A DNA stretch of 32,000 nt from Nostoc sp. PCC 7120 = FACHB-418. GTDB taxonomy: Bacteria > Cyanobacteriota > Cyanobacteriia > Cyanobacteriales > Nostocaceae. Below are positions 3,001 through 19,998 of this stretch, piece by piece (positions within the stretch are counted from its first letter, which is position 1; every line of letters starts with the position of its first letter). The position numbers were made by a program, and so were the translations under genes. The notes under the pieces were generated by a model. The model did no database searches. It saw only the letters and a program-made list of their open reading frames with translations, and was not told the origin of the DNA. Where the stretch lies: positions 3,270,001-3,302,000 of the forward strand of contig NC_003272.1 of the NCBI RefSeq assembly GCF_000009705.1, read 5' to 3'.

Positions 3001-4534
3001 TCGGCAAACAGTTGTGATAGACAACTGCAAAACAGATATCCCTGGTTTAATGGGGGAATATATGCAGCAAATACAACCCCAGAGTGTATTATCTACTCCC
3101 ATTATTAATCAAGGGCGTTTGGTGGGGGTTCTTTACTTAGAAAATAAACTCACTCAAGGGGTATTTACGCGCGATCGCCTTTCTGTGATCAATTTCCTCT
3201 GCACTCAAGCTGCGATTGCATTGGAAAATGCTCAATTATATAACCATCTGCAAGAGCGAGAACAGTTCCTCAGTAGTATTTATGAAGGTATTGGCTGTCT
3301 GGTATTTGTGATTGATGTCCGGGATAATGGTAGGCTTGAGTACACAGGATGGAGCAAATCTTGCGAACTAGCGATTGGTATACCGACTAGTGAAGTACTG
3401 GGCAAAACTCCACAAGAATTAATGGCTCCCGATCAAGGTGCAGCAGTGGAGCAAAAATATTTGCGTTGTTTCCAAACCGGCATACCCATCACCTATGAGG
3501 AATGCCTAACATTTAATGATCAGGAAACTTGGTGGTTAACCACACTCAGTCCATTAAAAGATGAGACGGACAAAGTTTATCGCCTAGTTGGGACAACGAT
3601 TAATATTAGCGAACAGCAAGCTGCACTTCGTGAACGCAAACAAGCTGAAGAAGCTGTAACAGAGAAATCACAAGCACTCGAAACAGCGTTAGAAGATTTA
3701 CAACAAGCACAATTACAAATTGTTCAGAGTGAGAAAATGTCTGCATTGGGAAATTTAGTAGCCGGTGTAGCCCATGAAATGAATAATCCTTTGGGCTTTA
3801 TTTCTGCGACTCTCAAACAAACTAAACCCAATTTTACTGATATAATTGGACACTTGCAACTCTATCAAGAATTAATAGAAAATCCAGGTGATGAAATTCA
3901 AGACCATGCTGAAGAAATTGACCTAGATTATCTTTTAGAAGACTTACCTAAAACGATAGATGCAATGGTTATGGCGTGTGACAGACTGAAAAATATTAGT
4001 ACTAGTCTTCGCACTTTTTCCCGCGCAGATAAAGACTATAAAGTACCTTTTAATCTTCATCAAGGTATTGACAGTACCATTCTTATTCTCAAACATCGTT
4101 TCAAAGCCAATGATAAACGCCCAGCAATTGAAGTCATAACTGAGTATGGAGATTTACCCCTAATTGAATGTTTTCCTGGGCAATTAAATCAGGTATTTAT
4201 GAACATTCTAGCCAATGCCATTGATGCACTTGATGAATCAAATACTGGACGAAGTTTTGCAGATATTCAAGCCAAGCCTAACCGCATCTTGATTACAACA
4301 TTAATGGTAGATAAATGTGTAAATATTTCAATATCTGATAATGGTAAAGGAATGACTAAAGAAGTCCAAGAGAAAATCTTTGACCATTTATTTACTACAA
4401 AAGCTGTAGGTAAAGGTACTGGATTGGGATTGGCGATCGCTCGGCAAATTGTAGAAGAAACTCACAACGGTAAATTGAGTTGTCACTCTATTTTGGGTGA
4501 GGGTACAGACTTTATGATAGAGATTCCAGTGTGA
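1..4534 (+). CDS. Multidomain sensor histidine kinase, 5'-partial (AAA_16/STAND ATPase, helical region, GAF, PAS, HisKA, HATPase_c)
   Basis: The frame is open from nt 2 to the stop at 4534, so the N-terminus lies outside the window. Motifs seen: FLDDLQWADSASLKL (AAA_16-type ATPase), a GAF-like block ending LVGVLYLENK, a PAS-like block, H-box VAGVAHEMNNP, and ATP-binding boxes DNGKGM and GKGTGLGLAIA. Confidence 0.85.
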   Translation, partial: RFNLLFQKFTQVFTTAEHPLVIFLDDLQWADSASLKLMQLLMADTGHLFLIGAYRDNEVSPVHPLMVTLNQIEKTATIINTITLSALTQRQINQLIADTFKCTEDLALPLSALIFQKTQGNPFFATQLLKQLYQDKLIDFNFQSGFWQCDIAKVKNQVVTDDVVEFMVAQLRRLPEATQKVLQLAACIGNQFDLATLAIVSEQSKIETAASLCKALQEGLILPLSEIYKFYQDSSLENTEHTAKNIEAQLAAFNVEEKTTIYKFLHDRVQQAASYLIPEEQKQLTHLKVGQLLLENTPLAQQSERIFEIVGQLNCAIPLITEQKKCQQLAQLNLNAGRKAKEAIAYSASLQYFNQGIELIISDGWKNAHDLTLNLYQDAAEAAFLNNEFEQMESLIEVVIQEAKNLLDKVKVHEIQLQSYQVQGQMLKAIKIGCKTLQELGIVLSEDITSHDINQAIENTLLILGNRQIESLIDLPMMIEPQALFALKIMISLTPSVHQAAPQLFPIIACEQVNLSLKYGNAALSAPGYADFAIVLNAVFNELDKGYEFGQLALKIVDKFAAKYVQSMTSFKVAAFNQINKLHIRDAINLLKESYSFGLEFGDFVHIIVATFFRLFYTYLTSSEKLDDLLKEIKMYEVNFASSQSFSIRFRMLRQSIEILTGVSHDSDLLMDEHWNEENILPILLQENDEFTFHEFYLIKLINSYLFNDSLTAVHYAEQGDSHLKGGAGMLSVSVFYYYDSLARLALYSQVEPSEQTRLLLRVDENQQHLKLRATVAPMNFQHKFDLVEAERHRALGQRFEAIDLYESAIAGAKANEYILEEALANELAAKFYLEWGKEKVAQAYMQEAYYCYFSWGAKAKTEDLEKRYPHLLQPILQQQRINFHPLETISWSGTSLSIHTSNADSTSISNMLDFSSILKAAQAISSSLKLDQLIANLTRIILENSGAKKSALILLQENTWQVKAITLINHEQIQPIFESQSLDTCQDIPVNIINYVKNTRQTVVIDNCKTDIPGLMGEYMQQIQPQSVLSTPIINQGRLVGVLYLENKLTQGVFTRDRLSVINFLCTQAAIALENAQLYNHLQEREQFLSSIYEGIGCLVFVIDVRDNGRLEYTGWSKSCELAIGIPTSEVLGKTPQELMAPDQGAAVEQKYLRCFQTGIPITYEECLTFNDQETWWLTTLSPLKDETDKVYRLVGTTINISEQQAALRERKQAEEAVTEKSQALETALEDLQQAQLQIVQSEKMSALGNLVAGVAHEMNNPLGFISATLKQTKPNFTDIIGHLQLYQELIENPGDEIQDHAEEIDLDYLLEDLPKTIDAMVMACDRLKNISTSLRTFSRADKDYKVPFNLHQGIDSTILILKHRFKANDKRPAIEVITEYGDLPLIECFPGQLNQVFMNILANAIDALDESNTGRSFADIQAKPNRILITTLMVDKCVNISISDNGKGMTKEVQEKIFDHLFTTKAVGKGTGLGLAIARQIVEETHNGKLSCHSILGEGTDFMIEIPV

Positions 4535-4883: not shown

Positions 4884-4956
4884 GGGGTTATAGCTCAGTT
4901 GGTAGAGCACTTCAATGGCATTGAAGGGGTCAGCGGTTCGAATCCGCTTAACTCCA
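4884..4956 (+). tRNA. tRNA-Ala (anticodon GGC)
   Basis: A 73-nt cloverleaf folds by hand. Acceptor stem GGGGTTA/TAACTCC carries the G3:U70 Ala identity pair. D-arm is GCTC-AGTTGGTA-GAGC. Anticodon stem is CTTCA/TGAAG with loop ATGGCAT, placing GGC at 4917-4919. T-arm is AGCGG-TTCGAAT-CCGCT. The discriminator is A and CCA is not encoded. Confidence 0.95.
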
Positions 4957-4958
4957 TT

Positions 4959-5116
4959 TGTACATTAAATATTTATTGTCAGTTTTAAAGAATTATTGTC
5001 CAATTTTACCCTGTGAAGAGACATGAATTGCGTGTTTCCTTGACTTTCAGCAGTTAATTCAGTTTCAAAGAATTATTGTCCAAAGTTGAAACCAGTTTTA
5101 AAGAATTATTGTCCAA
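4959..5116 (+). repeat. tRNA-proximal transposon end (LE-like) with putative TnsB binding sites
   Basis: The terminal sequence TGTACATTAAATATTTATTGTCAG runs 4959-4982. It is followed by three direct copies of CAGTTT(T/C)AAAGAATTATTGTCCAA at 4980-5003, 5060-5083 and 5093-5116. The terminal TGTACA matches my recollection of the ShCAST ends. Confidence 0.6.
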
Positions 5117-5287
5117 AAAGTAAGTTGGAAGGTTTAAGCAGGAAAAATCCAGTAATTTAAGCGACGCAAGTGTCAGTTAAATACACAGTTGCTTTTAGTA
5201 CCAAAGTCTATAGTTTAGTTTTGGCTAAACAGCCGACCACAATATAAACAATCTAAAAGTCACCCTGCTTTAGGCTTAAAGCTTATA

Positions 5288-6320
5288 ACTTTACGCGATG
5301 TGCGACTTATTGTTTCGTTACACAAGTTCGGTGTATGAACGATTGAAAAGAAAATTCCCACAATCCGCACTGGAGCGAGAAAATCGTTACCAGTGAATGG
5401 AATGCGGGAAAAATGTTTTCTATTGAAGAGTTTATCATTGCCGTATTTTGCTGTGTTGACGACGTGCTGATGGAAATCACCCAGATATACCCAATCAAGA
5501 GACGAGGTTTTGCTCCGAGTTTAAGGGAGAGTGAAGTTTTAACAATGGAAGTAGTGGCAGAGTTTTTGGGAATAGATGCTGACAAAGACATTTGGAAATA
5601 CTTTCACCGTCACTGGTTAGGGCTATTTCCTCAGTTAAAGAGTCGCTATGCTTTTATTCGTCAAGCAGCTAATTGTTGGCAGTACAAGGAACTCATACAA
5701 CAAAAATTAGCACAGTATTTAGGAGCATACTCTGATCAACTTCATTTGATTGATGGATTACCAATACCTTTGTGTGGCTTGAGTCGCGCTCCCAACTGCC
5801 GAAGTTTTAAATCCCTTGCAGATTATGGTTTTTGTGCTGCTAAAAAACAGACGTACTATGGGTTTCATGGGCATTTAATCGTTAGTGGCACAGGAGTTAT
5901 TAGTGGGTTTACCCTGACTCCGGCAAATGGCAGTGAACGGGACGCACTTTGGGATTTAATCACGCGAATTAAAGGTTTATTAATCGGAGATAAGGGCTAT
6001 TTAAGTCAGTTCTTGTCAGGAGAACTTAAAGAAGTGGGTATTACTTTACAAACCCCTTTGCGTTCTAATATGTCTGACTCTCGTAGCCGATCTTCAGTGC
6101 GATTAATGCAACGCTTTCGTCGCCTAATTGAAACAGTAATTGGTCAATTAGTTGAGAGATTTCATATAGAGAAGATTCGAGCGAGAGATATGTGGCATCT
6201 TACCAGTCGGCTCAATCGCAAGATTTTAGCTCATACCGTCTGTTTCTGGCTTAATCGCCACAATTGTGACCCTCTTCAGTTCGACGATCTTGTTACAGAA
6301 TATTAAGTCGCACATGGCGT
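5288..6320 (+). mobile_element. IS982-family insertion sequence, copy 1
   Basis: It is near-identical to 15411-16443 at a constant offset of 10123 nt, with only a few substitutions. Imperfect terminal inverted repeats are ACGCGATGTGCGACTTA (from 5293) and TAAGTCGCACATGGCGT (ending 6320). It has a single transposase ORF. No target-site duplication is visible. Confidence 0.8.
5413..6306 (+). CDS. IS982-family DDE transposase
   Basis: The 297-aa product has motifs I associate with IS982: LIDGLPIPLC, ADYGFCAAKKQTYYGFHGHL, TLTPANGSERD and LIGDKGY. Confidence 0.8.
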   Translation: MFSIEEFIIAVFCCVDDVLMEITQIYPIKRRGFAPSLRESEVLTMEVVAEFLGIDADKDIWKYFHRHWLGLFPQLKSRYAFIRQAANCWQYKELIQQKLAQYLGAYSDQLHLIDGLPIPLCGLSRAPNCRSFKSLADYGFCAAKKQTYYGFHGHLIVSGTGVISGFTLTPANGSERDALWDLITRIKGLLIGDKGYLSQFLSGELKEVGITLQTPLRSNMSDSRSRSSVRLMQRFRRLIETVIGQLVERFHIEKIRARDMWHLTSRLNRKILAHTVCFWLNRHNCDPLQFDDLVTEY

Positions 6321-6832
6321 GATTTTTGGTTATCTAGGTTTTGGCGGATGCCTTCAGAGACGGAAACGGTGCTGCGTTTAAGTTCGAGTACACCGATCGC
6401 AATACCATTAACATAAAGTACGATATCTGGGCGTTTGGTGTTTTCGCCTTTGACTGTGACTTCTTCGGCGATCGCAAAATCATTTTCTAGGGGTTTTTCC
6501 CAGTTGATCAGCCAAACGGTTTGGGTGTTCTCGCCAACTTCTTCTTTGACATTAACCCCATAGCGCAGGAGGCTATAAACTTGTTTGTTGATGTCATAAA
6601 GGCTTTTGCTTTGATCGCCTGCGACTTTGTTGAGTTCATACAAGGCTTTGGTGATCAGGCTGTTGCTGTAGCCTTGTTTGTCGCGTAGGAAGGTGCTGAG
6701 GATTTCCGTTTCGATGTTGCTGTTGTTAGGTCGGTCGTGCCAATCACCCAGATAGCGATATTTTAATTGTTGCTGGAATAGTTGCACAATGCGGTTTTGG
6801 GTTTGGCGTTCGCGTTGTCCGACCTTGCTCAT
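6321..6832 (-). pseudogene. hsdR: Type I restriction enzyme R subunit, N-terminal fragment truncated by IS982 copy 1
   Basis: The N-terminus MSKVGQRERQTQNRIVQLFQ...RPDIVLYVNGIAIGVLELKRSTVSVSEGIRQNLDNQK is typical of HsdR. After about 171 codons the frame runs into the IS inverted repeat and stops. No helicase domains follow anywhere in the window. Confidence 0.8.
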
Positions 6833-6935
6833 AGCAACTCTCTCACTGTGATAATCACGGATTTACTCAGCTTTAAATATGACACTGTTAATCAAACTAT
6901 GTCATCTCTATTTGTGTCATCCGTGAATTTTCTGT

Positions 6936-7340
6936 CTAGCTTAATGTTTGTAACCAGGAAGTACCTGTGAGATTGGTATCGACTGTAGCTAAGGTCAACT
7001 GGTGGTGAACTGCGGTAGCAGCAATAAAGCGATCGCCTGGGTCTTGATGTGGTAGCTGAATCTGACGGCTTAAAATAGCGATGTGGCGGTTAAGTGGAGC
7101 TTCACGAATTTCTAGGGTATTTAAGGCTAAATCGACCCATGCAACTGGATTAGGCTGTAAAGATATTCGTCCTTTTTCTGCTAAAAGTAGCGTTTCCCAG
7201 ATACTAATTGGACTGAGCCAAAGTTCGGTTGTTGTTGCTGCAATAGTGGTTTGAAGCCCAGGAGATAGGCGTTCGTTACCCAGCAAATACCAAAGCCAGA
7301 TGTGGGTATCAAGTAATAGCTTCACTGGAGTGCTTCCCAT
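6936..7340 (-). CDS. vapC: PIN-domain toxin, VapC family
   Basis: Motifs seen are LLLDTHIWLW and DPGDRFIAATAV. It lies directly downstream of, and overlapping, a small antitoxin gene. An alternative GTG start at 7325 gives the classic 4-nt GTGA overlap with the antitoxin stop. Confidence 0.85.
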   Translation of the reverse strand: MGSTPVKLLLDTHIWLWYLLGNERLSPGLQTTIAATTTELWLSPISIWETLLLAEKGRISLQPNPVAWVDLALNTLEIREAPLNRHIAILSRQIQLPHQDPGDRFIAATAVHHQLTLATVDTNLTGTSWLQTLS

Positions 7341-7558
7341 GTGGCAGCAGGGATTACTGGAGCAATTACGTCTCCCAATATTTCGCCGCTACCCTTCATT
7401 GCGCCAAATGCTGGGCGTTGGGGTTGAGGGGTGGCGGGATAGATAATGACTAAGGGTTCCCCGTCATGGGTGACGGTTACGGGTGTTTTAGTGCGTTGTA
7501 TTTCTGCAAATATTTGTTGCAGGGTTTCAGGCAGTTCGCTGGTAGCAATGTGTTCCAT
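7322..7558 (-). CDS. Type II antitoxin (Phd/YefM-like)
   Basis: The 78-aa ORF is translationally coupled to vapC. The segment TPVTVTHDGEPLVIIYP resembles Phd/YefM-type antitoxins. Confidence 0.7.
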   Translation of the reverse strand: MEHIATSELPETLQQIFAEIQRTKTPVTVTHDGEPLVIIYPATPQPQRPAFGAMKGSGEILGDVIAPVIPAATWEALQ

Positions 7559-7623
7559 AGTAAGGTTTAGCTTTTGTTCTTGCTTCTATTCTAGAGATTG
7601 GCGGTTGAAAACTCTAACGTTGA

Positions 7624-8907
7624 TCAAGAACTGCAAATTAGTCTCGTTTTTCCGGTGAGAAGTTCTTGCATCATGCCCTGTTTTATGGCTTTGTATTTAT
7701 CGCGCTTTTGTTCTAAGGCTGCGATTTCTGTATCCATGTCGCTGAGGATTTGGGCGATCGCTTTTTGTTCAGGGAGAGAAGAGACGGGAATTTTAAATTT
7801 ACTAATCCCTTTTACAGTTAATTGTGGTTGTGCGCTTCCAAATACAGCCCTATCAATCTGAGTTTGGAAAAGATGTGATTTCAAAAAACTATAAAGATAA
7901 CTATTGTCTAAATTCTTATCTTCACTTCTTAAAATTACCATTCCCGAATTTATCCGAATATTTTCAAAGGGGACAGAATAATCAAAAAATGCAATATTAC
8001 CTACAGTCCCACGAGTTGTTAACACCACATCTTTTTTACATAGCTTTCCATTTCCTAATAAATTATCTTTTTCCTTTGTTATAAAAGTACAATCCGAAAA
8101 CTTAAACCCTCCTTTTGTGACATTTTTGGCACTTAAAAACAAGCAATATCCATTGTCAAAAAGCTCATCATTGCTTGGATAATTATCTCCTCTATCTCCA
8201 TCTACCACTTTTAGAACTTGCTCAAATTCCTCCACCTCCCACTCGCCACTAAAACCCGGCAAGCGTTTCTCTCCCGTGAGGAGTTGCTGCATCGTGCCTT
8301 GCTTGGTGTTGTGCTTTTTGGCGATGATGCGATCGCACTCTGTAATCAGGGCATCGACATCACTGAGGGATTGGGCGATCGCTTCTTGTTCTTCTATTGT
8401 TGGAGGGATAGGAATTGAAATTTCACCTATTTGTTTTAGAGACAGAAACGGTTGCGCTCCTCCACTTAGAAGCTGATTGGTAATTCTAAATTTATTAAGA
8501 GAAAGACAATAATTTAAATAAGAACCGATTAAATTATTCTTATCAGGTTTTAATAATGCAACATTTTTAAGGCTAAATTCATATTCAACATCGATTAGTG
8601 CAGTTGTAGCTACTCCTGCACCGATGTTTACCATAAGCACATCATTCTTTTCTGGATTACATCGTTTGTAAATACTTTCATGTATACTTTGGGGCAAATA
8701 ATAGCAATTATTGAAATCAATAAAACCCTCTTTCACATGAATAGCAGTTAAAAATGGTATTCCTTGAGCAAGTGGTTTTGGTGTATCGTGAGTTCCGTCT
8801 GTAATTTTATTACAACATTCTACTAACTTTCTTATCTTCCAATCATTAGGTACGATTCCAAACTCTGTTTTTTGATAGCTTTCAGGAAAATTTGTTTTCA
8901 TAACCAC
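7624..8907 (-). CDS. hsdS: Type I restriction-modification specificity subunit
   Basis: The 427-aa product has two target-recognition halves, each followed by a conserved helix (EQEAIAQSLSDVDALI and EQKAIAQILSDMDTEIAALEQ). It overlaps the hsdM stop. Confidence 0.9.
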   Translation of the reverse strand: MVMKTNFPESYQKTEFGIVPNDWKIRKLVECCNKITDGTHDTPKPLAQGIPFLTAIHVKEGFIDFNNCYYLPQSIHESIYKRCNPEKNDVLMVNIGAGVATTALIDVEYEFSLKNVALLKPDKNNLIGSYLNYCLSLNKFRITNQLLSGGAQPFLSLKQIGEISIPIPPTIEEQEAIAQSLSDVDALITECDRIIAKKHNTKQGTMQQLLTGEKRLPGFSGEWEVEEFEQVLKVVDGDRGDNYPSNDELFDNGYCLFLSAKNVTKGGFKFSDCTFITKEKDNLLGNGKLCKKDVVLTTRGTVGNIAFFDYSVPFENIRINSGMVILRSEDKNLDNSYLYSFLKSHLFQTQIDRAVFGSAQPQLTVKGISKFKIPVSSLPEQKAIAQILSDMDTEIAALEQKRDKYKAIKQGMMQELLTGKTRLICSS

Positions 8908-11312
8908 ACAATCCCCATCTGCTGAAGATGCCCCTCAACCTTAGTCGTCAACTCATCCACCCGACTCGTCAACTCCGGTAAAGGTGTATCATACCGTTCA
9001 GCCAATTCCTGAATTCGCTGCGCCAACCGTTGCGAAATCTGATCCATCTCAGAAGCGATCGCCTGTCTTAACGTCTGCATCCACTTATCATCAACTACTA
9101 GGTTTTTAATTTCATCCTCTGTTAATTCCTGATATTTTTTTAACACCTGATTATGTAAAGATTGGGTAGCCTCTCTAATTTCTTTATTAAGTTCCGCTTC
9201 TGACTCAATCAATTTCAAATAAGACTTTAGAACTTTCAACTCATCCGCATCCGCAAAAAGAGGATTTTTCTGAATTTCCTTAATCCGAAGATTAATGTTC
9301 GCTTTAGTGATTTTCCCACTATCGTTAGTGACTTCCTCCAGCAAACCATCATCACCGCCATGTTCTTCTTGCAGTTCTTCCTGCTGGCGAACAATTTCAT
9401 CTTTTTTCGTTTCCAAAGTTGCGATCGCCGCCTGTTCAGTTTGAAAATAGCGATTAATCATCAACTCCTTCGGAATCAGTTCGCAGACATAATCTGTTAC
9501 TACACCTTTCTTATTCGTCACCGCTTTCAGTTCTGCCTTCCAGCCATCCTCAACCAAAATATAAACATCATCTTTCATACTTTCCACCCAATAAGTCATT
9601 AGGTGCTGGTAAACATCGTATTTATCAATCAGACTTTTACCCGTAAACCCTTGCAGCAAGTCTTCCGAGAGCGCGTAAATAATCGCCTTGGGCTTATCTC
9701 CCGGCTGGATGGCTTTCAGCAAAGGCGTGTGTTTCCCTTGCCACGTCTCAAAAACCGCTTGAATGTCTTTCCCATAGCTGATAAATTCAGGATGGGCAAA
9801 AATACAAGCTTTGACTTCTGAGCCTGGAATTTTGAGCATCAGGTATCCTGGGCGATCGGCCGCCTCAAATAATTCCTGTTGCAGCGTCGGGTAAACCTGC
9901 CAGTAATCGCTCAAAGCCTCAATATCTCGCTTGGGTATCCCCCCCAACAGATGCGCCTCAATATCCTGAATATCTTCCTCTTCCTGAGAGTCGATATAGC
10001 GCGGAATATTCAGGTTGTACTCATTCCCCGCAATTTCCTCAACTGGAACCATCCGCGAATACTTCGCCACCTCAAGCTGTTTGTTGAAGACATCAACAAT
10101 CTTATGAATGTCCTGCTCCCGCAGACGGTTTTTATTGCCGTCTTTAACAAATCCCTTGCTGGCATCAATCATAAAAATGCCTTGGCGATTCTCGGCATCT
10201 TCTTTGTCTAACACAATAATGCAGGCTGGTATCCCTGTGCCATAAAACAAGTTCGGCGGTAGCCCAATAATCCCTTTAATAATGCCCTTACTAATCAGAT
10301 TTTTCCGAATTTCTGCCTCCGCATTCCCCCGAAACAGCACCCCATGCGGTAGAATAATCGCTCCTTTGCCATTACTTTTCAGAGAGCAAACCATGTGCAG
10401 CAAAAAAGCATAGTCCCCATTTTTAGCTGGAGGAATCCCATAGTTATCAAACCGTTGAAACTCATCCTTGGCTAGATCAAGTCCATTACTCCAAGCCTTG
10501 GAGGAAAAGGGAGGATTAGCCACAGCAAAATCAAAAGTTTTCAGGCTACCATCCGCATCTTTGAAGTAAGGACTTGATAAAGTATTATCCTGCCAAATCT
10601 CAGCAGTAGGGTGTCCGTGCAGGATCATGTTCATCCGAGCCAAGGCGCGGGTAGCGTTGTCCATCTCTTGCCCGTAGATAGTTAAGCCCCGTTCCGCTTC
10701 ATCCGCCGACTTTAACAACAGAGAACCACTACCACAAGTCGGGTCATAAATCGTCTGACTCTGGCTTTGGGCTGAATTAACCCCAATAACTTGAGAGATG
10801 ACACGGGAAACTTCCGCCGGAGTATAAAATTGACCCTTGCTTTTACCTGATTGTGTCGCAAAGTTCCGCATCAGTTACTCATAGGCATCGCCTAAAATAT
10901 CATCACCATCAGCACGATTCTTACTAAAATTCAAAGCAGGGGTTTCAAAAATCGCCACCAAGTTGGAAAGCCTATCCTGCATTTCCTTACCCTTACCCAG
11001 CTTGTCGGCATTATTGAAATCAGCGACATCAATGACACCCTTTAAATCATTGGCTTCGGCTAAATTGGTAATAATTTTGTTGATACCATCCCCGATATCT
11101 TTCTGTCCTTTTAGCGCCACAATATCCTGAAATCCGCCACCTTCAGGCACTTCAATCAGCACATCTGCGACACCAGCGTATTTATCAGATACATATTTAA
11201 CGAACAATAAAACCAGTACATAATCCTTATACTGCGAGGCATCCATACCACCCCGCAGTTCATCACAGCTTTTCCATAACGAACTATATAGTTCACTTTT
11301 CTTAATTGCCAT
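8898..11312 (-). pseudogene. hsdM: Type I R-M DNA methyltransferase subunit interrupted by a single in-frame TAA
   Basis: The 145-aa HsdM N-domain ORF (10875-11312) and the 657-aa catalytic ORF (8898-10871) are in the same frame. The junction reads GAYE-TAA-LMRNFATQSGKSKGQFYTP, with the stop codon at 10875-10877 where HsdM proteins normally have Tyr. Motif I DPTCGSGSLL and motif IV NPPF are present. Confidence 0.85.
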
Positions 11313-11509
11313 TTCGTGTAGCCTTTAAAAGACCTCCCCCGATCAACTTTGCCAGACGTTCTCAAGCCCGTCTGACACTTTGCCTTGAAGTTTTTACATC
11401 GTGCAAAGAACCAATAACATACCACGCACAAGAACTTAGCTCATGTAGTGGCTGAGGATATATCGTATACCAGGAATGCTCAAATTGGCGTAAATACAAC
11501 AGCTACATA

Positions 11510-11674
11510 TTATTGCGGCGGATTTTGCTTCTCTCGCTCCTCAACAGCCTTACTCACAATCCGCACAACCAGATTACTGATGGGACGGTCTTCTTCCTGC
11601 GCCCATCTCACCAAAGCATCGTGGATATCTTTGGGGAAATATATCGAAGTTTGCACGCGATCGCTCTGGCTCAT
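11510..11674 (-). CDS. Small ribbon-helix-helix (CopG/Arc/MetJ-like) DNA-binding protein, candidate CAST or R-M regulator
   Basis: I translated this 54-aa ORF by hand because it is below the track cutoff: MSQSDRVQTSIYFPKDIHDALVRWAQEEDRPISNLVVRIVSKAVEEREKQNPPQ. It shows a beta-strand, helix, helix pattern typical of RHH repressors. It is divergent from cas12k and co-directional with hsdM. Confidence 0.55.
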   Translation of the reverse strand: MSQSDRVQTSIYFPKDIHDALVRWAQEEDRPISNLVVRIVSKAVEEREKQNPPQ

Positions 11675-11771
11675 CAACAATAAAACGATTTGTAATCAAA
11701 TCAAAAACGATTTGTAGTCCAACCATCATACCTTCACAACCTTGCTACAGGGCTAAATAAAGTTTAACAAT

Positions 11772-11839
11772 GTGTGGCAATGTTTATATGTTAGATTAGA
11801 AACATTGCCGAACATTAATAAAACGTGTGGCAATGTTTA
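11772..11839. promoter_or_regulatory. Operator-like repeat cluster in the RHH/cas12k divergent intergenic region
   Basis: GTGTGGCAATGTTTA occurs twice, at 11772-11786 and 11825-11839. The inverted core AAACATTGCC lies between them at 11800-11809. This gives three GGCAATGTTT cores arranged direct, inverted, direct. Confidence 0.4.
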
Positions 11840-12085
11840 ATGCCTTTAGCTATTACCTCGAAAGTTCACGCTATGTGCGGCTTCAGCAATATTAATGAGT
11901 TTGCATTGATGAAGAACTTCCCAAATCTACAAAGTCATCAGCAGATTTGAGAAGTTGCTGCAAAAGTACCGAGATTTTTGTATGGCGATCGCGTCAAGTG
12001 CGATCGTTGCCTAGTGAAGGTAAATAGGTGATTGATTTTAGTCACACAAATAGAAAAGGGTGTATTTGCTGGAGATATTGTCACT

Positions 12086-14110
12086 ATGAGCCGCGATCGT
12101 AAAAAGGGTTCCAAGAGTCCAAGCCTAAGAACTATACGATGTCATCTGCATACCAAAGAAGATGTACTTCGTAAAGTATGGGAAGAAATGACTCAAAAAA
12201 ATACTCCTTTAATTGTTGAATTGCTGAAGAGTGTGAGCGAACAACCAGAATTTGAAACTAATAAAGAAAACGGAAAAATAACGAAGAAAGAAATCACAAA
12301 CTTACGTAAATCTCTGACTCAAGATTCAGGTCGCCTTTACTCATCGGTGGACAACTTAGTGCAAGAAGTTTATTCAGCATGGCTGACTTTATACCAAAAA
12401 AGAAAAAAGCAGAAAGAAGGCAAAGAGTATTTTCTCAACAATATACTCAAAAGTGACATCGAGCTTGTAGAAGAGAGTAATTGTGATTTACAAATTCTAC
12501 GGGCTAAAGCACAGGAAATCATTTCTAATCCACAAGATATTCTCAGGCAAATTACTATTGATAATCCCAAGGATAAACCTACTAAATCTATTCAAAAACG
12601 AGTTAGAAAAAACATTAATGCTTCAAATAGTGATACAGCAAAAAATAATATTTTAAATTCTCAAGAAAAAACTACAGAAGAAAACATATCAAAAAGCGTA
12701 ATAGAGATTTTATACGAAATTCACAAAACAACACAGGATACAATAATACGCTGTGCTGTTACTTACCTGATAAAGAACTATACTAAAATTAGTGATACAG
12801 AAGAAGATTTAAACAAATTAAAAGAGCGTCGTGCCGAGAAAGAAATAGAAATTAAACGCTTGGAGAAGCAGATTCAAGATAGTCGATTACCTAATGGTAG
12901 AGATATCACTGGAGCCAGATATCTTGAGGCATTTGATAAGTTAATAAATCAAGTGCCTAAAAATAATGAAGAGTTTGCAAATTGGATAGCTGACGCATCG
13001 AGAAAAATATCAAATTTGCCATATCCAATAGATTATTTATACAGTGATTTAACTTGGTATAAAAATCAAGATGGAAAGATTTTTGTATACTTTAATGGTT
13101 GGTCTAAGTATCACTTTCAAATTTGTTGTAATAAACGCCAGCGTCATTTTTTTGAAAGGTTCCTAGAAGACCATAAGGCTTGGAAAGAGAGCGAGAAAGG
13201 AGAAGTAAAACTCTCAGGAAGCCTGGTGACACTACGCTGTGTACAGTTGTTATGGCAACAAGGTGAAGGCAAGGGTGAACCTTGGAAAGTTAACAAATTA
13301 TCTTTACATTGTACATATGATACTCGTTTATGGACAGCAGAAGGTACTGAAGAGGCGAGAAAAGAAAAGATAAATAAAATACAAAGACAAGTTGAACAAG
13401 CAGAAGAGACTGAAAATCTAGATGAACAGCAACAAAAACAATTGAAGAAAAATAAATCTTCATTGTCTCGACTGAATAATTCTTTCAATCGTCCTATTCA
13501 GCCAATTTACCAAGGTCTATCTAACATGATTGTTGGCGTTAGTTTTCATCCAGTGGAATTAGCAACAGTTGCTGTAGTTGATACAACCACTCAAAAAGTC
13601 ATAGCCTATAAGACAATCAACGAGTTACTAGATAATGCTTTTCATCTATTAAGCCGTATGCGACGACAACAAATACATTTCCGTAAAGAGAGGAAAAAAG
13701 CTCAGAAAAAAGATTCGCCTTGTAATCTAGGGGAATCAAAACTAGGGGAATATGTGGATAAATTACTAGCAAAGAGAATAGTGGAAGTCGCTAAGGAATA
13801 TCAGGCTATTTGCATTGTCCTACCCAAATTAAAAGATATGAAGGAAATTCGCACCAGTGTAATTCAAGCAAAAGCTGAAACCAAGTTTCCAGGTAATGTC
13901 AATGCACAAAAATTATATGTCAAGGAATATAATCGCCAGGTACATAATTGGAGTTACAACAGACTTCAAGAATCCATAAAGTCAAAAGCTGCTGAATTGA
14001 AAATTAGTATTGAATTTGGTATTCAGCTATCTTATGACACTCTGCAAGCACAAGCGAGGGATTTAGCATTGTCTGCCTATCAATGCAGGATTCATACTAT
14101 TGATAGATAA
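12086..14110 (+). CDS. cas12k: Cas12k (type V-K effector, naturally nuclease-deficient)
   Basis: The 674-aa product starts at ATG 12086, preceded by GGAG. The track ORF begins at an upstream TTG at 12032. It is collinear with ShCas12k as I recall that sequence. Shared blocks include NTPLI.ELL, YFNGWS, FFERFLED, GEGKGEPW, RLNNSFNRPIQPIYQG, VGVSFHPVELATVAVVD, IVLPKLKDMKE and WSYNRLQESIKSKAA. Confidence 0.9.
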   Translation: MSRDRKKGSKSPSLRTIRCHLHTKEDVLRKVWEEMTQKNTPLIVELLKSVSEQPEFETNKENGKITKKEITNLRKSLTQDSGRLYSSVDNLVQEVYSAWLTLYQKRKKQKEGKEYFLNNILKSDIELVEESNCDLQILRAKAQEIISNPQDILRQITIDNPKDKPTKSIQKRVRKNINASNSDTAKNNILNSQEKTTEENISKSVIEILYEIHKTTQDTIIRCAVTYLIKNYTKISDTEEDLNKLKERRAEKEIEIKRLEKQIQDSRLPNGRDITGARYLEAFDKLINQVPKNNEEFANWIADASRKISNLPYPIDYLYSDLTWYKNQDGKIFVYFNGWSKYHFQICCNKRQRHFFERFLEDHKAWKESEKGEVKLSGSLVTLRCVQLLWQQGEGKGEPWKVNKLSLHCTYDTRLWTAEGTEEARKEKINKIQRQVEQAEETENLDEQQQKQLKKNKSSLSRLNNSFNRPIQPIYQGLSNMIVGVSFHPVELATVAVVDTTTQKVIAYKTINELLDNAFHLLSRMRRQQIHFRKERKKAQKKDSPCNLGESKLGEYVDKLLAKRIVEVAKEYQAICIVLPKLKDMKEIRTSVIQAKAETKFPGNVNAQKLYVKEYNRQVHNWSYNRLQESIKSKAAELKISIEFGIQLSYDTLQAQARDLALSAYQCRIHTIDR

Positions 14111-14140
14111 AATTTCCCCCTAAAGATTGTATTATTTTAA

Positions 14141-14212
14141 ATATTAAATCGGTGCCATCTATTATGATGCGACAGTATCACCCCTTTGTGTAGATACTGT
14201 AAGAATGGGTTA
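14141..14212 (+). ncRNA. tracrRNA-like gene, 5' segment upstream of the IS insertion
   Basis: It starts 31 nt after the cas12k stop with ATATTAAATCGGTGCC (compare ShCAST tracrRNA AUAUUAAUAGCGCCGC, recalled). It ends in GGGTTA, which joins GTTTAAC at 15125 once the IS and one TTA copy are removed. Confidence 0.55.
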
Positions 14213-14235
14213 GAGACCATTTATAAAGTAAATCT

Positions 14236-14676
14236 TTAGACGACTAGACGACGTAGCATAATACGAGTCATAACGGCATATATGGCAGCCTCACTCATTT
14301 CTGGGAGATGCTCATAATCCTTACTGAGACGACGGTACTGGTTTAACCTGCCAAATGTTCTTTCTACTACCCACCGTTTGGGCAAAACCTGAAATTCTTG
14401 ATTAGTACGCCGGATTACCTCAACATGAGCTTGAATCATCAGCCAAACAGAGAGCGCAAATTTATCACCGTCATAGCCGGAATCAACCCAGATGACTTCA
14501 ACTTTTTCCAGTAATTCTGGACGCTCTTCTAACAGTTCCATCAAAGTATAGGCGGCAAGTAATCTTTCTCCAGCATTTGCTTCACTTACAACCACTTTTA
14601 ACAAAAGTCCCAGACTATCAACCAAAGTTTGCCGCTTTCGTCCTTTTACCTTCTTGCCACCATCAAAACCGTACAC
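14236..14676 (-). CDS. IS5-family transposase orfB (DDE catalytic part), probably expressed by -1 frameshift from orfA
   Basis: The product contains GFDGGKKVKGRKRQ and WVVERTFGRLNQYRRLSKDYE. The slippery heptamer A AAA AAG lies at 14683-14689 on the minus strand, in the orfA/orfB overlap. Confidence 0.8.
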   Translation of the reverse strand: MYGFDGGKKVKGRKRQTLVDSLGLLLKVVVSEANAGERLLAAYTLMELLEERPELLEKVEVIWVDSGYDGDKFALSVWLMIQAHVEVIRRTNQEFQVLPKRWVVERTFGRLNQYRRLSKDYEHLPEMSEAAIYAVMTRIMLRRLVV

Positions 14677-15029
14677 ATCCCCCTTTTTTCAGTCGTTTTT
14701 ACCGACTGGCTGTCTGCCGCGATCGCCGTGGGTTGAGTTGACTTCCCCATTTTTTGACGAACTTGATCGCGCAAAGTATGATTCATTTGCTCCCAGATAC
14801 CTCGTTTTTGCCATTTACGATAGTAGCTGTAAACAGTTGAACTAGGAGGAAAATCCCCTGGAAGCATATCCCACTGACAACCTGTTTTCAGATGGTAGTA
14901 GATAGCGTTGCATACTTCTCGCATATCAGTTGTTCGGGGATGCCCACCGCATTTAGCGGGTGGAATCAAAGGAGCTAAAATTGCCCATTCTGAGTCATTA
15001 AGGTCTGTAGAATAAGACTTTCGTCTCAT
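14646..15029 (-). CDS. IS5-family transposase orfA (DNA-binding N-terminal part)
   Basis: The 127-aa product contains LNDSEWAILAPLIP and YYHLKTGCQWDMLP. It ends just after the A6G slippery site. Confidence 0.8.
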   Translation of the reverse strand: MRRKSYSTDLNDSEWAILAPLIPPAKCGGHPRTTDMREVCNAIYYHLKTGCQWDMLPGDFPPSSTVYSYYRKWQKRGIWEQMNHTLRDQVRQKMGKSTQPTAIAADSQSVKTTEKRGMCTVLMVARR

Positions 15030-15124
15030 TGTTTCCTATGTAAATACACTCTACAAACAGTATCTTATCGCTGCCTTTTTATCTGATGGCTCTCCTTTAG
15101 ATTTACTTTATAAATAGCCTCTTA

Positions 15125-15315
15125 GTTTAACGCTTGGATAAGCGTATTCTTTCTGGCCCTGGTGGCTGCCAACTCTACCTGTGCGATCATCTAAGTGTTT
15201 GTTAGCAGTAATTGCTTGGGTAAGTAAATGCTGCTTTTAGATGAGAAAGGACTCGCACCGAGACGCATGGGAAGTATAAGGTGTTAGGGTTTCAAACAGC
15301 CCAGAACCTTAGCTC
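15125..15315 (+). ncRNA. tracrRNA-like gene, 3' segment (3' end approximate)
   Basis: GTTTAACGCTTGGATAAGCGTATTCTTTCTGGCCCTGGTGGCTGCC parallels ShCAST GUUUGACUGUAUAAAUACAGUCUUGCUUUCUGACCCUGGUAGCUGCU (recalled). The hairpin ACGCTT-GGAT-AAGCGT replaces ACUGUAU-AA-AUACAGU, which looks like compensatory change. The CUUUCUG.CCCUGGU.GCUGC block is conserved. Confidence 0.55.
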
Positions 15316-15410
15316 TTGACATCAAACTCTTTTAGCTTGGTGTTGGGTGCCAGAGCGGCCTGTATGATCTAAATCTTCGATTTTGATTTTACAGTGACTT
15401 TCTACCTCTT

Positions 15411-16443
15411 ACTTTACGCGATGTGCGACTTATTGTTTCGTTACACAATTGAGGTGTATGAACGATTGAAAAGAAAATTCCCACAATCCGCACTGGAGCG
15501 AGAAAATCGTTACCAGTGAATGGAATGCGGGAAAAATGTTTTCTATTGAAGAGTTTATCATTGCCGTATTTTGCTGTGTTGACGACGTGCGGATGGAAAT
15601 CACCCAGATATACCCAATCAAGAGACGAGGTTTTGCTCCGAGTTTAAGGGAGAGTGAAGTTTTAACAATGGAAGTAGTGGCAGAGTTTTTGGGAATAGAT
15701 GCTGACAAAGACATTTGGAAATACTTTCACCGTCACTGGTTAGGGCTATTTCCTCAGTTAAAGAGTCGCTATGCTTTTATTCGTCAAGCAGCTAATTGTT
15801 GGCAGTACAAGGAACTCATACAACAAAAATTAGCACAGTATTTAGGAGCATACTCTGATCAACTTCATTTGATTGATGGATTACCAATACCTTTGTGTGG
15901 CTTGAGTCGCGCTCCCAACTGCCGAAGTTTTAAATCCCTTGCAGATTATGGTTTTTGTGCTGCTAAAAAACAGACGTACTATGGGTTTCATGGGCATTTA
16001 ATCGTTAGTGGCACAGGAGTTATTAGTGGGTTTACCCTGACTCCGGCAAATGGCAGTGAACGGGACGCACTTTGGGATTTAATCACGCGAATTAAAGGTT
16101 TATTAATCGGAGATAAGGGCTATTTAAGTCAGTTCTTGTCAGGAGAACTTAAAGAAGTGGGTATTACTTTACAAACCCCTTTGCGTTCTAATATGTCTGA
16201 CTCTCGTAGCCGATCTTCAGTGCGATTAATGCAACGCTTTCGTCGCCTAATTGAAACAGTAATTGGTCAATTAGTTGAGAGATTTCATATAGAGAAGATT
16301 CGAGCGAGAGATATGTGGCATCTTACCAGTCGGCTCAATCGCAAGATTTTAGCTCATACCGTCTGTTTCTGGCTTAATCGCCACAATTGTGACCCTCTTC
16401 AGTTCGACGATCTTGTTACAGAATATTAAGTCGCACATGGCGT
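15411..16443 (+). mobile_element. IS982-family insertion sequence, copy 2
   Basis: It is near-identical to copy 1 and in the same orientation. Its left flank is about 95 bp past the tracrRNA-like region. Its right flank is an AT-rich cassette. No target-site duplication is visible. Confidence 0.8.
15536..16429 (+). CDS. IS982-family DDE transposase
   Basis: The 297-aa product differs from the copy 1 protein at one residue, VDDVRME versus VDDVLME. Confidence 0.8.
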   Translation: MFSIEEFIIAVFCCVDDVRMEITQIYPIKRRGFAPSLRESEVLTMEVVAEFLGIDADKDIWKYFHRHWLGLFPQLKSRYAFIRQAANCWQYKELIQQKLAQYLGAYSDQLHLIDGLPIPLCGLSRAPNCRSFKSLADYGFCAAKKQTYYGFHGHLIVSGTGVISGFTLTPANGSERDALWDLITRIKGLLIGDKGYLSQFLSGELKEVGITLQTPLRSNMSDSRSRSSVRLMQRFRRLIETVIGQLVERFHIEKIRARDMWHLTSRLNRKILAHTVCFWLNRHNCDPLQFDDLVTEY

Positions 16444-16572
16444 AACACTAGTAATTTAATAATTAACTGAAAATAATTATTTCATGGTAATATACTAAAC
16501 TCGTTAAAATAAAAAGTGATTTATTAGGATAGTATTAATCTTTTAAAAAAGATGTAAAACGTTCAACAAATT

Positions 16573-17058
16573 ATGCAGGGTTCTATCATTGGCAGCTTCC
16601 GTAAATATTACAGAGAAATTAGGGGGGTTATAGATTTATTTGAAAGTGTAGGAATTTTTATTCTTTCTCCCACAAAATCACAAGTTATAAACCCAGATGA
16701 GGAATTTGTATTACTTGAAAGTGATGACTTAAACTACTCTCCTGTGGAAATACAACTCATAGCTTTTCATAGAATCTTAAGATCAAGTTTTGTGTATACA
16801 TTTTGTCCTAACGGTTATATTGGACGTACTACGGCATATGAAATAGGACGAGTTGTAGAACGTAAAATAAAATTATTTTTCAGTGAAGCTCCAAAAGATT
16901 TACCTATTTTTTTGCCACAAAATTCTATTTGGAGTCCAAAAGATTTTAGTAAATATTTCTTAACTAATGGAAAATTACCTGAAACTTTAGAGGCTGGAAG
17001 TAAAACACTTTCAGAAAAGTTACATAATGATTTATTCTTAGGAAAGTATCAAGATTAA
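16573..17058 (+). CDS. Hypothetical protein, nucleoside 2-deoxyribosyltransferase / DNPH1(Rcl)-like fold (tentative)
   Basis: The 161-aa product has an N-terminal IIGSFRKY and a later GYIGRTTAYEIGRVVERKIKLFF. These resemble the (Y/F)xxGSxR and G.GxExGxAxxxxKP(I/V) signatures of the family. The region is AT-rich and contains no HIP1 sites. Confidence 0.45.
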   Translation: MQGSIIGSFRKYYREIRGVIDLFESVGIFILSPTKSQVINPDEEFVLLESDDLNYSPVEIQLIAFHRILRSSFVYTFCPNGYIGRTTAYEIGRVVERKIKLFFSEAPKDLPIFLPQNSIWSPKDFSKYFLTNGKLPETLEAGSKTLSEKLHNDLFLGKYQD

Positions 17059-17086
17059 ATTAGGTACATAATTTATAGGTGTTAGT

Positions 17087-17530
17087 ATGGAAAAAAAACA
17101 TATTGTAATATGCGGTAGTATGTCTAATTATGAGGAAATGTTAAAATACCAAAACATTTTAATAAAAAATAACATTCCTTGTCTAGTTCCTGAAAATGAG
17201 GGAGAACTAATCAAACACCTTTCAAGAGATGAATTTAATGAGTTCAAAAGAAAAGTCTCAAAAAGGCATTTTGAAGAAATTATCAATAATAATGTTTTTG
17301 CAATTTTAGTAGTCAATCCTACCAAAAATTATATTCCTAATTATATAGGTGCTAATACCTTTGCAGAGATTGCTATAGCATTTTATAAACAAAGGCAAAT
17401 ATTCCTTCTCTATGATATATATGAGGGTTTCAAAGATGAATTGATTGCTTGGGATATAAAACCACTTCAAGGAAATATTAATTCATTAATAGAACAATAC
17501 AATTCCTGTATTTACTCTAAAACTAAATAA
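17087..17530 (+). CDS. Hypothetical protein, nucleoside 2-deoxyribosyltransferase / DNPH1(Rcl)-like fold (tentative), paralog of the upstream gene
   Basis: The 147-aa product contains HIVICGSMSNY and YIGANTFAEIAIAFYKQRQIFLLY, the same two-motif layout as 16573-17058. The gene is preceded by an AGGTG Shine-Dalgarno-like sequence. Confidence 0.5.
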   Translation: MEKKHIVICGSMSNYEEMLKYQNILIKNNIPCLVPENEGELIKHLSRDEFNEFKRKVSKRHFEEIINNNVFAILVVNPTKNYIPNYIGANTFAEIAIAFYKQRQIFLLYDIYEGFKDELIAWDIKPLQGNINSLIEQYNSCIYSKTK

Positions 17531-17573
17531 CTCAGTTTCCCAAAAAATCTGATTAGACAAAGTAAACAAATGA

Positions 17574-18030
17574 ATGATAGGCAAGATACTGCTACACTTT
17601 TTGGATAATGAATTAATCACTTTATTTGGTATCAAACAATCAGGGAAAATTTCTAAAAAAATATATCAAGAACTTCGCTTGTCTACTAGATTAGCCTTCC
17701 TTCTATGTTCAGACAAGGTTGTCATTCCTGCATCAAACTATTTTGAATCACCTTTTGCCAAAAAAATTCTTGATGAACTACAAGAATTTAGCGAATTTGG
17801 TTATCTTGGTCTCATTTCTAGTTCAATGAATGTTTTAGAGTTTGTTGAAAAAAAGAAGGAGCAATATTCAACCGATAGAAATCGTTATCCCATATACTTT
17901 AAATCTCTTGAATCACAGTCTAGTCTTTCTATTTCTGCTACATGGATACCCCGCAATAAAAGTGCTACAGAAGACATTACACAAAACTGGATTACTAATA
18001 TAGATAATAGTAGTATTTGGAAAAAGTTTT
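17574..18030 (+). pseudogene. Hypothetical protein gene whose 3' end is interrupted by the ISL3 element
   Basis: The ORF reads into the ISL3 left inverted repeat, which starts at 18031. The terminal residues WFFR-stop are encoded by the IS. I recognise no family. Confidence 0.4.
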
Positions 18031-19446: not shown

Positions 19447-19998
19447 AGAAAGATTTAAAGATGTTAAAGTTTGTTTAATACATCAACATCCTCTTGTGCA
19501 AAATTGTCCTTGCTGTCATCGCCAACTACTTTGGTTAGACTGGCAATCCAGTTTAGGCTATTGTTAACACTAGTTAGGAACACATTATACTACTCCAGTA
19601 GTTACTCAGAAAAGATCGATAGTCTGAAAGTTTATATCCCATACCAGCATGAACCGCTTCTGCTCCATGCTCAAAAAACCCACTACTTTCTGTGAAGTGA
19701 TAAAAAAGTTTAACTCAAGCTATTGTAGGGTGGGAATCTGGCCCACCCATGTTATGCAAGGTAAATGTCTAACAGCTTAGGAGCGCACTCACGAAAAAAT
19801 TAGCATCCGGCGTAGCATCTGGCTAAGCCATAGTTTCAAGCACACACAATCAAACGCAAATTTATAGATTTTTAATTTACAATTTTTAGTCAATTAATGC
19901 CTAGCATTTCAACTTATGGTCACTTAATACTTGTTGATAGGTTTTTCTGCTGCGATCGCCATAACTAAAGAATGAACATTTCAAAGTCCATCTTGGTC

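Follow-up and report, generated by a model that had tools for sequence, protein, structure and literature searches.

A degraded type V-K CAST locus at tRNA-Ala of Nostoc sp. PCC 7120, probably rearranged by IS982

The stretch of DNA described in this article, a window of 32,000 nucleotides (nt) of Nostoc sp. PCC 7120 (BA000019.2, positions 3,270,001-3,302,000), carries next to a tRNA-Ala(GGC) gene an island which is very probably a dead clustered regularly interspaced short palindromic repeat (CRISPR)-associated transposon (CAST) of type V-K_V2. This element formerly homed to the tRNA gene and was probably rearranged by the insertion sequence (IS) IS982 through an inversion and two losses that border it. 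The presence of a degraded V-K_V2 CAST at this site is already catalogued, and its decay is ordinary. The locus was listed as 'PCC 7120_(2)', with the regulator Arc_2 (BAB74389.1), in Supplementary Data 1 of Ziemann et al. (2023; PMC9938897), where the row 'Anabaena sp. PCC 7120_(2)' gives the left end (LE) as NA and the right end (RE) as 3274959, i.e., window position 4959. More recently, the transcription start site (TSS) of its trans-activating CRISPR RNA (tracrRNA_V2) was mapped in vivo at BA000019.2 3,284,143 (window 14143), and an IS5/IS1031 element at 3,284,212-3,285,122 (all2692/all2693) was found to interrupt it (Ziemann et al., 2025; PMC12416283); these published coordinates fit window numbers plus 3,270,000. 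New in the present analysis are the apparent inversion of the block that carries cas12k, the LE nature of the end tabled as RE, the cut of tracrRNA_V2 by IS982 on top of the IS5 insertion, and a TniQ fragment of type I-B2.

Orientation of the cas12k block relative to V-K_V2 CASTs

The island was compared with 15 loci encoding Cas12k at 66-72% identity, 13 of which include a tRNA gene; among these relatives are Scytonema sp. NIES-4073 (L024) and Tolypothrix tenuis PCC 7101 (L027). In all 13 relatives with a tRNA gene, cas12k on the plus strand is followed by a tracrRNA region of ~680 nt, the CRISPR array, the anchor, LE and tRNA-Ala, the latter on the opposite (minus) strand and 1.2-4 kb from cas12k. 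The CRISPR repeats of the relatives are 37 nt long and end in GGTGGGTTGAAAG (the V2 repeat sequence ends in GGTGGTGGGTTGAAAG), and their anchor consists of a solitary truncated repeat, GGTGGTTTGAAAG, plus 17 nt identical to part of tRNA-Ala (V2 anchor sequence, GGTGGTTTGAAAGGAGCACTTCAATGGCAT). The same order was described for V-K elements in section 6 of PMC9938897, with tnsB, tnsC and tniQ at the opposite end (RE) and reading inward. A Gloeothece plasmid carries a compact V-K CAST with this order as well (RE, tnsB, tnsC, tniQ, cas12k, array, LE), the ends of which are 98% complementary over 44 nt. From the layout of the relatives, the tRNA-proximal end is adjoined by the CRISPR array and not by tnsB.

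In the window, the tRNA-Ala gene and the end adjacent to it (4880/4891-5118/5126) align at 78-88% with tRNA and LE of the 13 relatives. This end carries TnsB sites and lies 3' of a tRNA gene that contains both the protospacer-adjacent motif (PAM) and the protospacer, the 17-mer GAGCACTTCAATGGCAT of the gene being the anchor spacer in the Scytonema and T. tenuis loci and in a third relative (L037). The end at window 4959 is of LE type by its sequence and by its adjacency to tRNA-Ala, and the RE column of the 2023 table reflects its position relative to the inverted cas12k.

Both tRNA-Ala and LE are on the plus strand and lie 7 kb upstream of cas12k, which is also on the plus strand and points away from them. 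The block 6321-15410 appears from these comparisons to be inverted relative to LE and tRNA-Ala, because the LE/tRNA side and the cargo at 16444-18030 keep one frame, opposite to that of the cas12k block. The frame of this cargo is given by the T. tenuis locus, to which 16443/16444-18030 is 97.9% identical at the nucleotide level (L027 positions 3796-2211), with homology that stops exactly at both IS borders; there cas12k and the cargo genes are on opposite strands, the latter being located immediately past a ygjP-like gene that comes after the restriction-modification (R-M) cargo.

The breakpoints meet the IS ends to the base at junctions B (6321), C (15415) and D (16443/16444), the last of which falls 148 bp beyond ygjP' in the T. 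tenuis locus. At junction A, homology to LE ends at 5118/5126 and gives way to 169 bp of unique sequence in which the anchor is lacking and for which no relative has a homologue (5119-5287). A weak likeness of 5230-5262 to the region upstream of the relatives' anchors was dropped, the anchor itself being absent. Joints C and A bracket one contiguous lost ancestral stretch that held the 3' end of the tracrRNA, the array and the anchor, while joints B and D would bracket a loss of the hsdR codons from ~172 onward and of ygjP, ~3.4 kb by comparison with the relatives.

The tracrRNA gene fixes joint C. The IS5/IS1031 element bears a TAG duplication (14209-14211 and 15123-15125), and when the tracrRNA pieces are joined without this element and one TAG, positions 1-391 align with +4 to +421 of the relatives at 85-89.5%. 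Since the alignment is continuous after its removal, the element is a simple insertion into the tracrRNA gene; an earlier note made on this DNA from the sequence alone had missed that it splits this gene. Homology then runs to 15415 and stops at IS982 copy 2. Anti-repeat 2 (AACTACCACCCCC) is located at +465 in the relatives and their first repeat at ~+680; it was not found in the tracrRNA remnant of the window and, as homology stops at +421, copy 2 cuts within the ~450-nt tracrRNA_V2 gene, 44 nt before anti-repeat 2. This copy had been placed ~95 bp after the tracrRNA, whereas it interrupts the gene; no complete tracrRNA_V2 with anti-repeats is present, the gene being split by IS5/IS1031 and cut by IS982. 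As to the parts lying further on in the relatives, the statement that neither a CRISPR array nor a tRNA-matching anchor spacer occurs was borne out in the window: no array was found by TRF, no V2 repeat motif or anchor by motif searches allowing up to 3 mismatches, and no tRNA-matching spacer by a k-mer search with the tRNA, the relatives being positive with each of these methods.

The earlier note had explained the island as a collinear CAST that suffered independent adjacent deletions, copy 1 having removed tnsB, tnsC and tniQ and copy 2 the array. Such a model accounts for two IS982 copies without target duplication and for the absence of the tns genes and the array, but the layout of the relatives makes it extremely unlikely. 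In 13/13 of them the array, not tnsB, lies between tracrRNA and the tRNA-proximal LE, and the tns genes are upstream of cas12k at the other end; moreover, a cas12k pointing away from tRNA-Ala fits no collinear deletion, and, seen from cas12k, the cargo beyond copy 2 is on the wrong strand. Copy 1 was thought to occupy the place where tnsB should start, and by the same 13 relatives this place belonged to the anchor, the array and the 3' end of the tracrRNA; likewise, the array should not begin at copy 2, away from the tRNA gene, but on the tRNA side of the tracrRNA.

A mis-join of the assembly across the 1-kb IS repeats was also considered as the source of the arrangement. Short-read metagenome contigs do show every combination of IS982 flanks, but these are clearly chimeric assemblies and were dismissed as such. 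The same order and orientation is shared with BA000019.2 by three further complete assemblies of the PCC 7120 lineage (CP183817.1, CP183473.1 and AP018216.1), and draft FACHB contigs, which end at the IS copies, agree with it, so that an artefact has a nearly negligible probability.

The IS982 copies and a possible history of the four joints

The 297-aa transposase of the two copies scores 258 bits on NCBIfam transpos_IS982 (NF033520), and a DDE transposase, a length of ~1 kb and terminal inverted repeats starting with AC place the element in the IS982 family. The block common to both copies spans 5288-6320 and 15411-16443. With element ends defined from six genomic copies, each measures 1028 bp between the inverted repeats ACGCGATGTGCGACTTA and ACGCCATGTGCGACTTA; the two are direct, as had been noticed before, and differ by 4 mismatches (99.6% identical).

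Perfect 6-bp target duplications are carried by four other IS982 copies of the genome (AAAGTA at 4.37 Mb, TAGATA at 4.09 Mb, TATTTA at 3.226 Mb and TATGTT at 1.83 Mb), while the flanks of copy 1 (AACTTT/GATTTT) and copy 2 (TACTTT/AACACT) show no duplication in any pairing, which agrees with the first reading of these sites. The absence is meaningful because 4/4 control copies carry a duplication, and both copies of the island are rearrangement joints, not simple insertions. To this extent the idea of IS-mediated deletion or recombination was right; the layout on which it was built is reversed, and the loss of the tns genes and RE is a separate event. The left flanks of both copies, (A/T)ACTTT, resemble a known IS982 target, TACTTT being the reverse complement of AAAGTA (the duplication of all3624); this likeness explains the common ACTTT, and shared descent of the flanks is not needed.

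Copy 1 is identical to the IS982 copies at 4.09 and 4.37 Mb, and copy 2 differs by four single-nucleotide polymorphisms (SNPs; IS positions 34, 36, 37 and 176) that are common to the all2664 copy. The SNP types of the two differ, as would fit insertions made independently of each other. All four allele combinations at IS positions 34 and 918 are present among four copy variants (the window copies, L004 and L017), which indicates that IS982 copies of this genome have undergone gene conversion or recombination with one another.

On the pattern of the relatives, the ancestral order from the tRNA gene would have been LE, anchor CRISPR RNA (crRNA), array, tracrRNA, cas12k, divergent arc_2, hsdM, hsdS, vapBC, hsdR, ygjP, three small cargo genes, further cargo, tniQ, tnsC, tnsB and RE. 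IS982 would have inverted the segment that is bounded by tracrRNA nt ~386 and hsdR codon ~171 and now occupies 6321-15410, with one copy at each new joint. The joints kept in the process would be that of the tracrRNA with the left inverted repeat (IRL) of copy 2 and that of the right inverted repeat (IRR) of copy 1 with hsdR', and the new ones those of A with IRL of copy 1 and of IRR of copy 2 with D. A single inversion, be it through homologous recombination or through replicative transposition, leaves inverted IS copies and the copies here are direct, so that more than one event is needed. The shortest path constructed comprises four events, and it is inferred. IS982 would first have inserted in hsdR; an intramolecular replicative inversion into a site ~330 bp inside LE could then have generated copy 1, retaining the joint of IRR with hsdR' and creating that of A with IRL. 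Subsequently, an independent insertion in the tracrRNA gene would have been followed by an adjacent deletion to a site upstream of the 161-aa gene, giving copy 2 with the joint of tracrRNA and IRL retained and that of IRR and D newly made; this deletion would have removed the array, the anchor, the second inversion product, the 3' part of hsdR and ygjP. The IS5/IS1031 insertion in the tracrRNA gene and the nonsense mutation in hsdM would be separate events, as would a loss on the far side (the rest of the 467-aa gene, tniQ, tnsC, tnsB and RE) at or beyond an ISL3-family element.

The same joints are reproduced exactly by homologous recombination among four IS982 insertions (A, C, B and D), with an inversion between A and B followed by a deletion between C and D. 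The SNP pattern shows exchange between genomic copies, copy 2 resembling a mosaic that is of type II on the left and of type I on the right, and the genome has ~9 IS982 genes (PMC3141674). This route, however, takes six events (four insertions within 10 kb and two recombinations) against four by transposition, and the extra copies left no trace; it is a possibility of the minor kind, and in any case a sub-variant of the favoured explanation rather than different biology.

The arrangement can also be read as a composite transposon, in which the unit IS982-hsdR'...cas12k-tracr'-IS982 was excised and re-inserted, or flipped, as a whole within the relic by means of its outer ends. Two direct, near-identical copies of one IS do bracket 9.1 kb, and reasoning from the alignments, the new joints are the outer ends of the unit (IRL of copy 1 and IRR of copy 2) and the inner joints are kept. 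The composite structure suggested in the earlier note is correct in this sense. The outer flanks, AACTTT and AACACT, are nevertheless not a duplication, they adjoin one another in none of the compared loci, L027 included, and they come from either side of the donor position, an outcome that capture of a single target cannot yield; by exact-protein look-ups, the unit occurs at this locus of the PCC 7120 lineage and at no second location. Movement as a composite unit is improbable on these grounds.

Missing transposition genes and the ISL3 side

No match to V-K TnsB, TnsC or TniQ better than E=0.1 was obtained in the window by tblastn with the Gloeothece TnsB, TnsC and TniQ, a V2 TniQ (from L034) and a V2-clade TnsB fragment (from L032); as a positive control, the Gloeothece queries find the expected tns pieces in L032 and L034. 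Six-frame PDB searches of the unannotated DNA detected no tns remnant except a fragment of I-B2 type at 19454-19702. The absence of tns genes reported earlier stands for the V-K genes and fails for this I-B2-like TniQ/TnsD fragment. Technically, the latter is the kind of tns fragment within 4959-20103 that the earlier note had named as speaking against its own reading, although neither V-K tns genes nor an array were found.

The cognate RE is likewise absent from the window, the best match of the inverted 45-nt LE tip in 32 kb being 26-27/45, which equals the maximum obtained with shuffled sequence. A right end had been placed at ~20103, close to two 44-nt direct repeats at 19999-20100 (91% identical, 58 nt apart, each with a GTTGTC...GACAAC hairpin). 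These repeats were ruled out as CAST right end, as no inverted LE-tip copy above shuffle level occurs and the ends of an intact V-K element are 98% complementary over 44 nt; they show no homology to V2 LE or to I-B2 CAST ends. Scans with these repeats gave 0 viral matches and 120 metagenome matches, all of them due to chance and without extended homology. When 19447-20180 was searched against plasmids, the only match was a ~50-bp element at 20100-20156, which begins exactly at the end of the second 44-nt repeat; it occurs at unrelated sites on 9 Nostocales plasmids (Nostoc, Calothrix, Tolypothrix and Brasilonema) with 86-92% identity and looks like a small dispersed repeat. A 22-mer at 16465-16486 that resembles the LE tip was considered as the remains of a right end and rejected, since it is rich in A and T, its score does not rise above noise, and the likeness is not continued in the matching L027 sequence.

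The ends of the ISL3-family element were fixed by independent contigs (L185 and L186). Its flanks show no 8-bp target duplication, and it cuts the 467-aa cargo gene at codon 153. The loss of tnsB, tnsC, tniQ and RE most plausibly maps to this junction, judging from position and from the absent duplication.

The TniQ/TnsD fragment lies directly beyond this element. It matches TnsD in PDB (E=0.002), has a zinc-ribbon motif and is 79% identical in nucleotides over 187 nt to a Coleofasciculus locus (L057); in tblastn, 19454-19702 is covered by aa 166-255 of a TniQ/TnsD protein of ~458 aa, with in-frame stops inside the alignment (E=7e-18). With the 44-aa fragment as query, a word-indexed search returned no homologue, and relatives were found by exhaustive HMMER (P0003, itself a fragment, at 84% and P0004 at 73% identity; the matches include a 458-aa TniQ-family protein). 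In intact relatives, the gene has cas6, cas8b, cas7 and cas5 as neighbours and lies by the end of an element at tRNA-Val(GAC), an arrangement that corresponds to a type I-B2-like CAST; in the window only the fragment is present, with no partner genes. Its presence points to a second CAST, of class 1, which would either have left remains at this site in the past or have travelled as cargo. The fragment is distinct from V-K tniQ and restores no V-K function.

Several points weigh against an IS982-rearranged V-K_V2 relic as proposed above. The direct copies force at least two further assumed events, whose order and mechanism are not recoverable, and the chemistry of IS982 transposition may be either replicative or cut-and-paste. 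The orientation of 16444-18030 depends on a single relative, L027, and junction A is not placeable in the ancestral sequence, the 169 bp at 5119-5287 being without homologue. In addition, 'deleted' strictly means absent from the 32-kb window; the negative results for the tns genes and RE rest on the V-K set, V2 fragments and the inverted LE tip; and to attribute the loss of these parts to ISL3 is an inference from its position and missing duplication.

Cargo, remaining genes and comparison with known systems

The features of the island are collected in Table 1.

Table 1. Features of the island at tRNA-Ala(GGC), given in window positions.
Feature	Position	Strand	Basis and remarks
tRNA-Ala(GGC)	4884-4956	+	ARAGORN, Rfam; conserved V-K_V2 attachment site
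Anchor protospacer GAGCACTTCAATGGCAT	4905-4921		PAM GTA at 4902-4904, 57 nt from LE tip
LE of V-K_V2 CAST	4959-5118	+	Tip TGTACA at 4959
Three 24-nt repeats in LE, TnsB sites	4980, 5060, 5093		Repeat family D2
Inner 169 bp beyond LE	5119-5287		Ends at junction A (AACTTT); no homologue in relatives, no anchor repeat or spacer
IS982 copy 1 (alr2683)	5293-6320	+	No target duplication; gene name from PMC3141674
hsdR 5' remnant, ~171 codons	6321-6832	-	Pfam HSDR_N; junction B
vapC, PIN domain	6936-7340	-	Pfam
Antitoxin gene of vapC	7322-7558	-	Pfam
hsdS	7624-8907	-	Pfam Methylase_S
hsdM pseudogene	8898-11312	-	Tyr146 to TAA stop at 10872-10874
arc_2 (ribbon-helix-helix, RHH), 54 aa, BAB74389.1	11510-11674	-	Pfam RHH_5; divergent from cas12k
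cas12k, intact 674-aa open reading frame (ORF)	12086-14110	+	Points away from tRNA-Ala
tracrRNA_V2 remnant	14143-15415	+	5' piece 14143-14211, middle piece 15126-15415; ends at junction C (TACTTT)
IS5/IS1031-group element (all2692/all2693)	14212-15122	-	Inverted repeat I8, Pfam, NCBIfam
IS982 copy 2 (alr2694)	15416-16443	+	No target duplication
Cargo: 161-aa gene, 147-aa gene, first 153 codons of 467-aa gene	16444-18030	+	Junction D at 16444
ISL3-family element (alr2698)	18027-19450	+	Pfam, inverted repeat I1; left junction ambiguous by 4 nt (TTTT)
TniQ/TnsD-family pseudogene fragment, I-B2-like	19454-19702	+	Directly after right end of ISL3
Two 44-nt hairpin-bearing direct repeats	19999-20100	strandless	Repeat D4

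The R-M cargo of type I is dead twice over, as hsdM carries a nonsense change and hsdR is truncated. The hsdR remnant is 92% identical in amino acids to the N-terminus of HsdR of the relatives (1028-1035 aa), and homology to their HsdR of 1026-1039 aa begins, also at the nucleotide level, exactly at 6321, which upholds the cut at about codon 171 described before; hsdM forms one uninterrupted ORF of 805-807 aa in the relatives, as against a single nonsense change here. The vapC gene and its antitoxin gene have the same position as in the relatives, with 94-99% amino acid identity. The R-M cargo of T. tenuis PCC 7101 has decayed as well, since the helicase part of hsdR and the ygjP-like metallopeptidase are fused by an internal deletion into a 477-aa ORF (L027 3945-5375, minus strand). 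The PCC 7120 relic and T. tenuis PCC 7101 share cargo that is 97.9% identical in nucleotides and a Cas12k that is only 71% identical in amino acids, a contrast which indicates recent exchange of cargo between diverged V2 CASTs. A homologue search with the truncated 156-aa cargo protein returned only the protein of the window itself, and for the 147-aa and 161-aa cargo proteins and the ISL3 transposase, exact matches came from the PCC 7120 lineage only. Beyond ISL3, ~650 bp of non-coding DNA precede a phytochrome-like kinase gene. A 131-nt inverted repeat with 75% complementarity (3685-3815 and 20924-21054) corresponds to the HisKA regions of paralogous histidine-kinase genes which flank the island in opposite orientation.

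The ORFs of cas12k and arc_2 are still intact. Cas12k scores 789 bits on NCBIfam V_Cas12k and matches ShCas12k in PDB at 1e-140, and the 54-aa product of arc_2 has the same sequence as the Arc_2 that Supplementary Data 1 of PMC9938897 lists under 'PCC 7120_(2)'. Of the 15 relatives, 11 have a full-length cas12k; the gene is partial or split in L034, L035 and L036, and has an upstream in-frame extension in L032; with cas12k or tns genes broken, these same four loci are degraded (4/15). In L034, a second, inverted copy of the arc_2/cas12k promoter region (749-959, 71% identity to window 11600-11819) lies just upstream of tniQ; it could represent duplication of a region to which the regulator binds, or a further rearrangement.

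The relic is unable to transpose: it has a single end, the transposase genes and the guide RNA are absent, and the tracrRNA is broken twice. Intact cas12k and arc_2 and an active tracrRNA promoter (TSS mapped in vivo) amid broken surroundings could be taken to mean that the IS982-bounded unit was kept or moved as a composite element with a domesticated, transposase-independent Cas12k, guided in trans by RNAs of another CAST or acting as a DNA-binding regulator; we consider this very unlikely. The other CAST in question is AnCAST, a second element in the same genome that the earlier note had correctly allowed for. It is a V-K_V1 CAST at 4,361,015-4,381,776 of the same chromosome (all3613-all3630, with cas12k as all3613 and cvkR as alr3614; PMC9938897). 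Mobilisation of the relic in trans by AnCAST would require a second cognate end as well, and this end is absent.

The main value of the locus lies in correction and caution, and it opens no new biology. Its host is a model cyanobacterium for the regulation of V-K CASTs. Users of PCC 7120 as a host for CAST engineering should be aware that the relic provides an intact attachment site at tRNA-Ala, complete with PAM and protospacer, and a lone V2 left end, and that V2 components brought in could complement its intact cas12k or suffer interference from it. The relic also illustrates the dismantling of CASTs by IS elements.

Set beside the V-K_V2 CASTs of PMC12416283 (e.g., those of Scytonema sp. 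NIES-4073 and T. tenuis PCC 7101), the relic is alike in Cas12k (66-72%) and the divergent Arc_2, in the promoter and the 5' 386 nt of tracrRNA_V2 (85-89% identity), in an LE with three TnsB sites beside tRNA-Ala, and in the order hsdM-hsdS-vapBC-hsdR. It differs from them by the lack of array, anchor crRNA, anti-repeat 2, tnsB, tnsC, tniQ and RE, by a cas12k block that appears inverted relative to LE, and by four IS elements inside it. AnCAST resembles the relic as a V-K CAST with an IS982 copy (all3624) and with type I R-M and PIN cargo, but it has the regulator CvkR, V1 tracrRNA and repeat, and a TniQ at most 61% identical to that of V2 (PMC12416283); its IS982 is a simple insertion with the AAAGTA duplication, unlike the copies of the relic. 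In AnCAST (CP183817.1 at ~4.373 Mb, L001/L005), all3624 sits in a second cluster of type I R-M and PIN genes that resembles the cargo of the V2 relic.

The TniQ/TnsD fragment is 73-84% identical over the zinc-ribbon region to type I-B2-like TnsD/TniQ proteins (TnsD of PDB 8v32; Nostoc and Coleofasciculus loci at tRNA-Val, L055 and L057). In contrast to those CASTs, ~90 codons with in-frame stops are left here, and cas6, cas8, cas7, cas5, tnsABC, a cognate end and tRNA-Val are not nearby. Finally, the island shares with classical IS-mediated inversion and adjacent deletion the duplication-less IS copies at novel joints, a segment that appears inverted and losses on its flanks, and departs from a classical inversion in that its copies are direct, not inverted, which points to more than one event.

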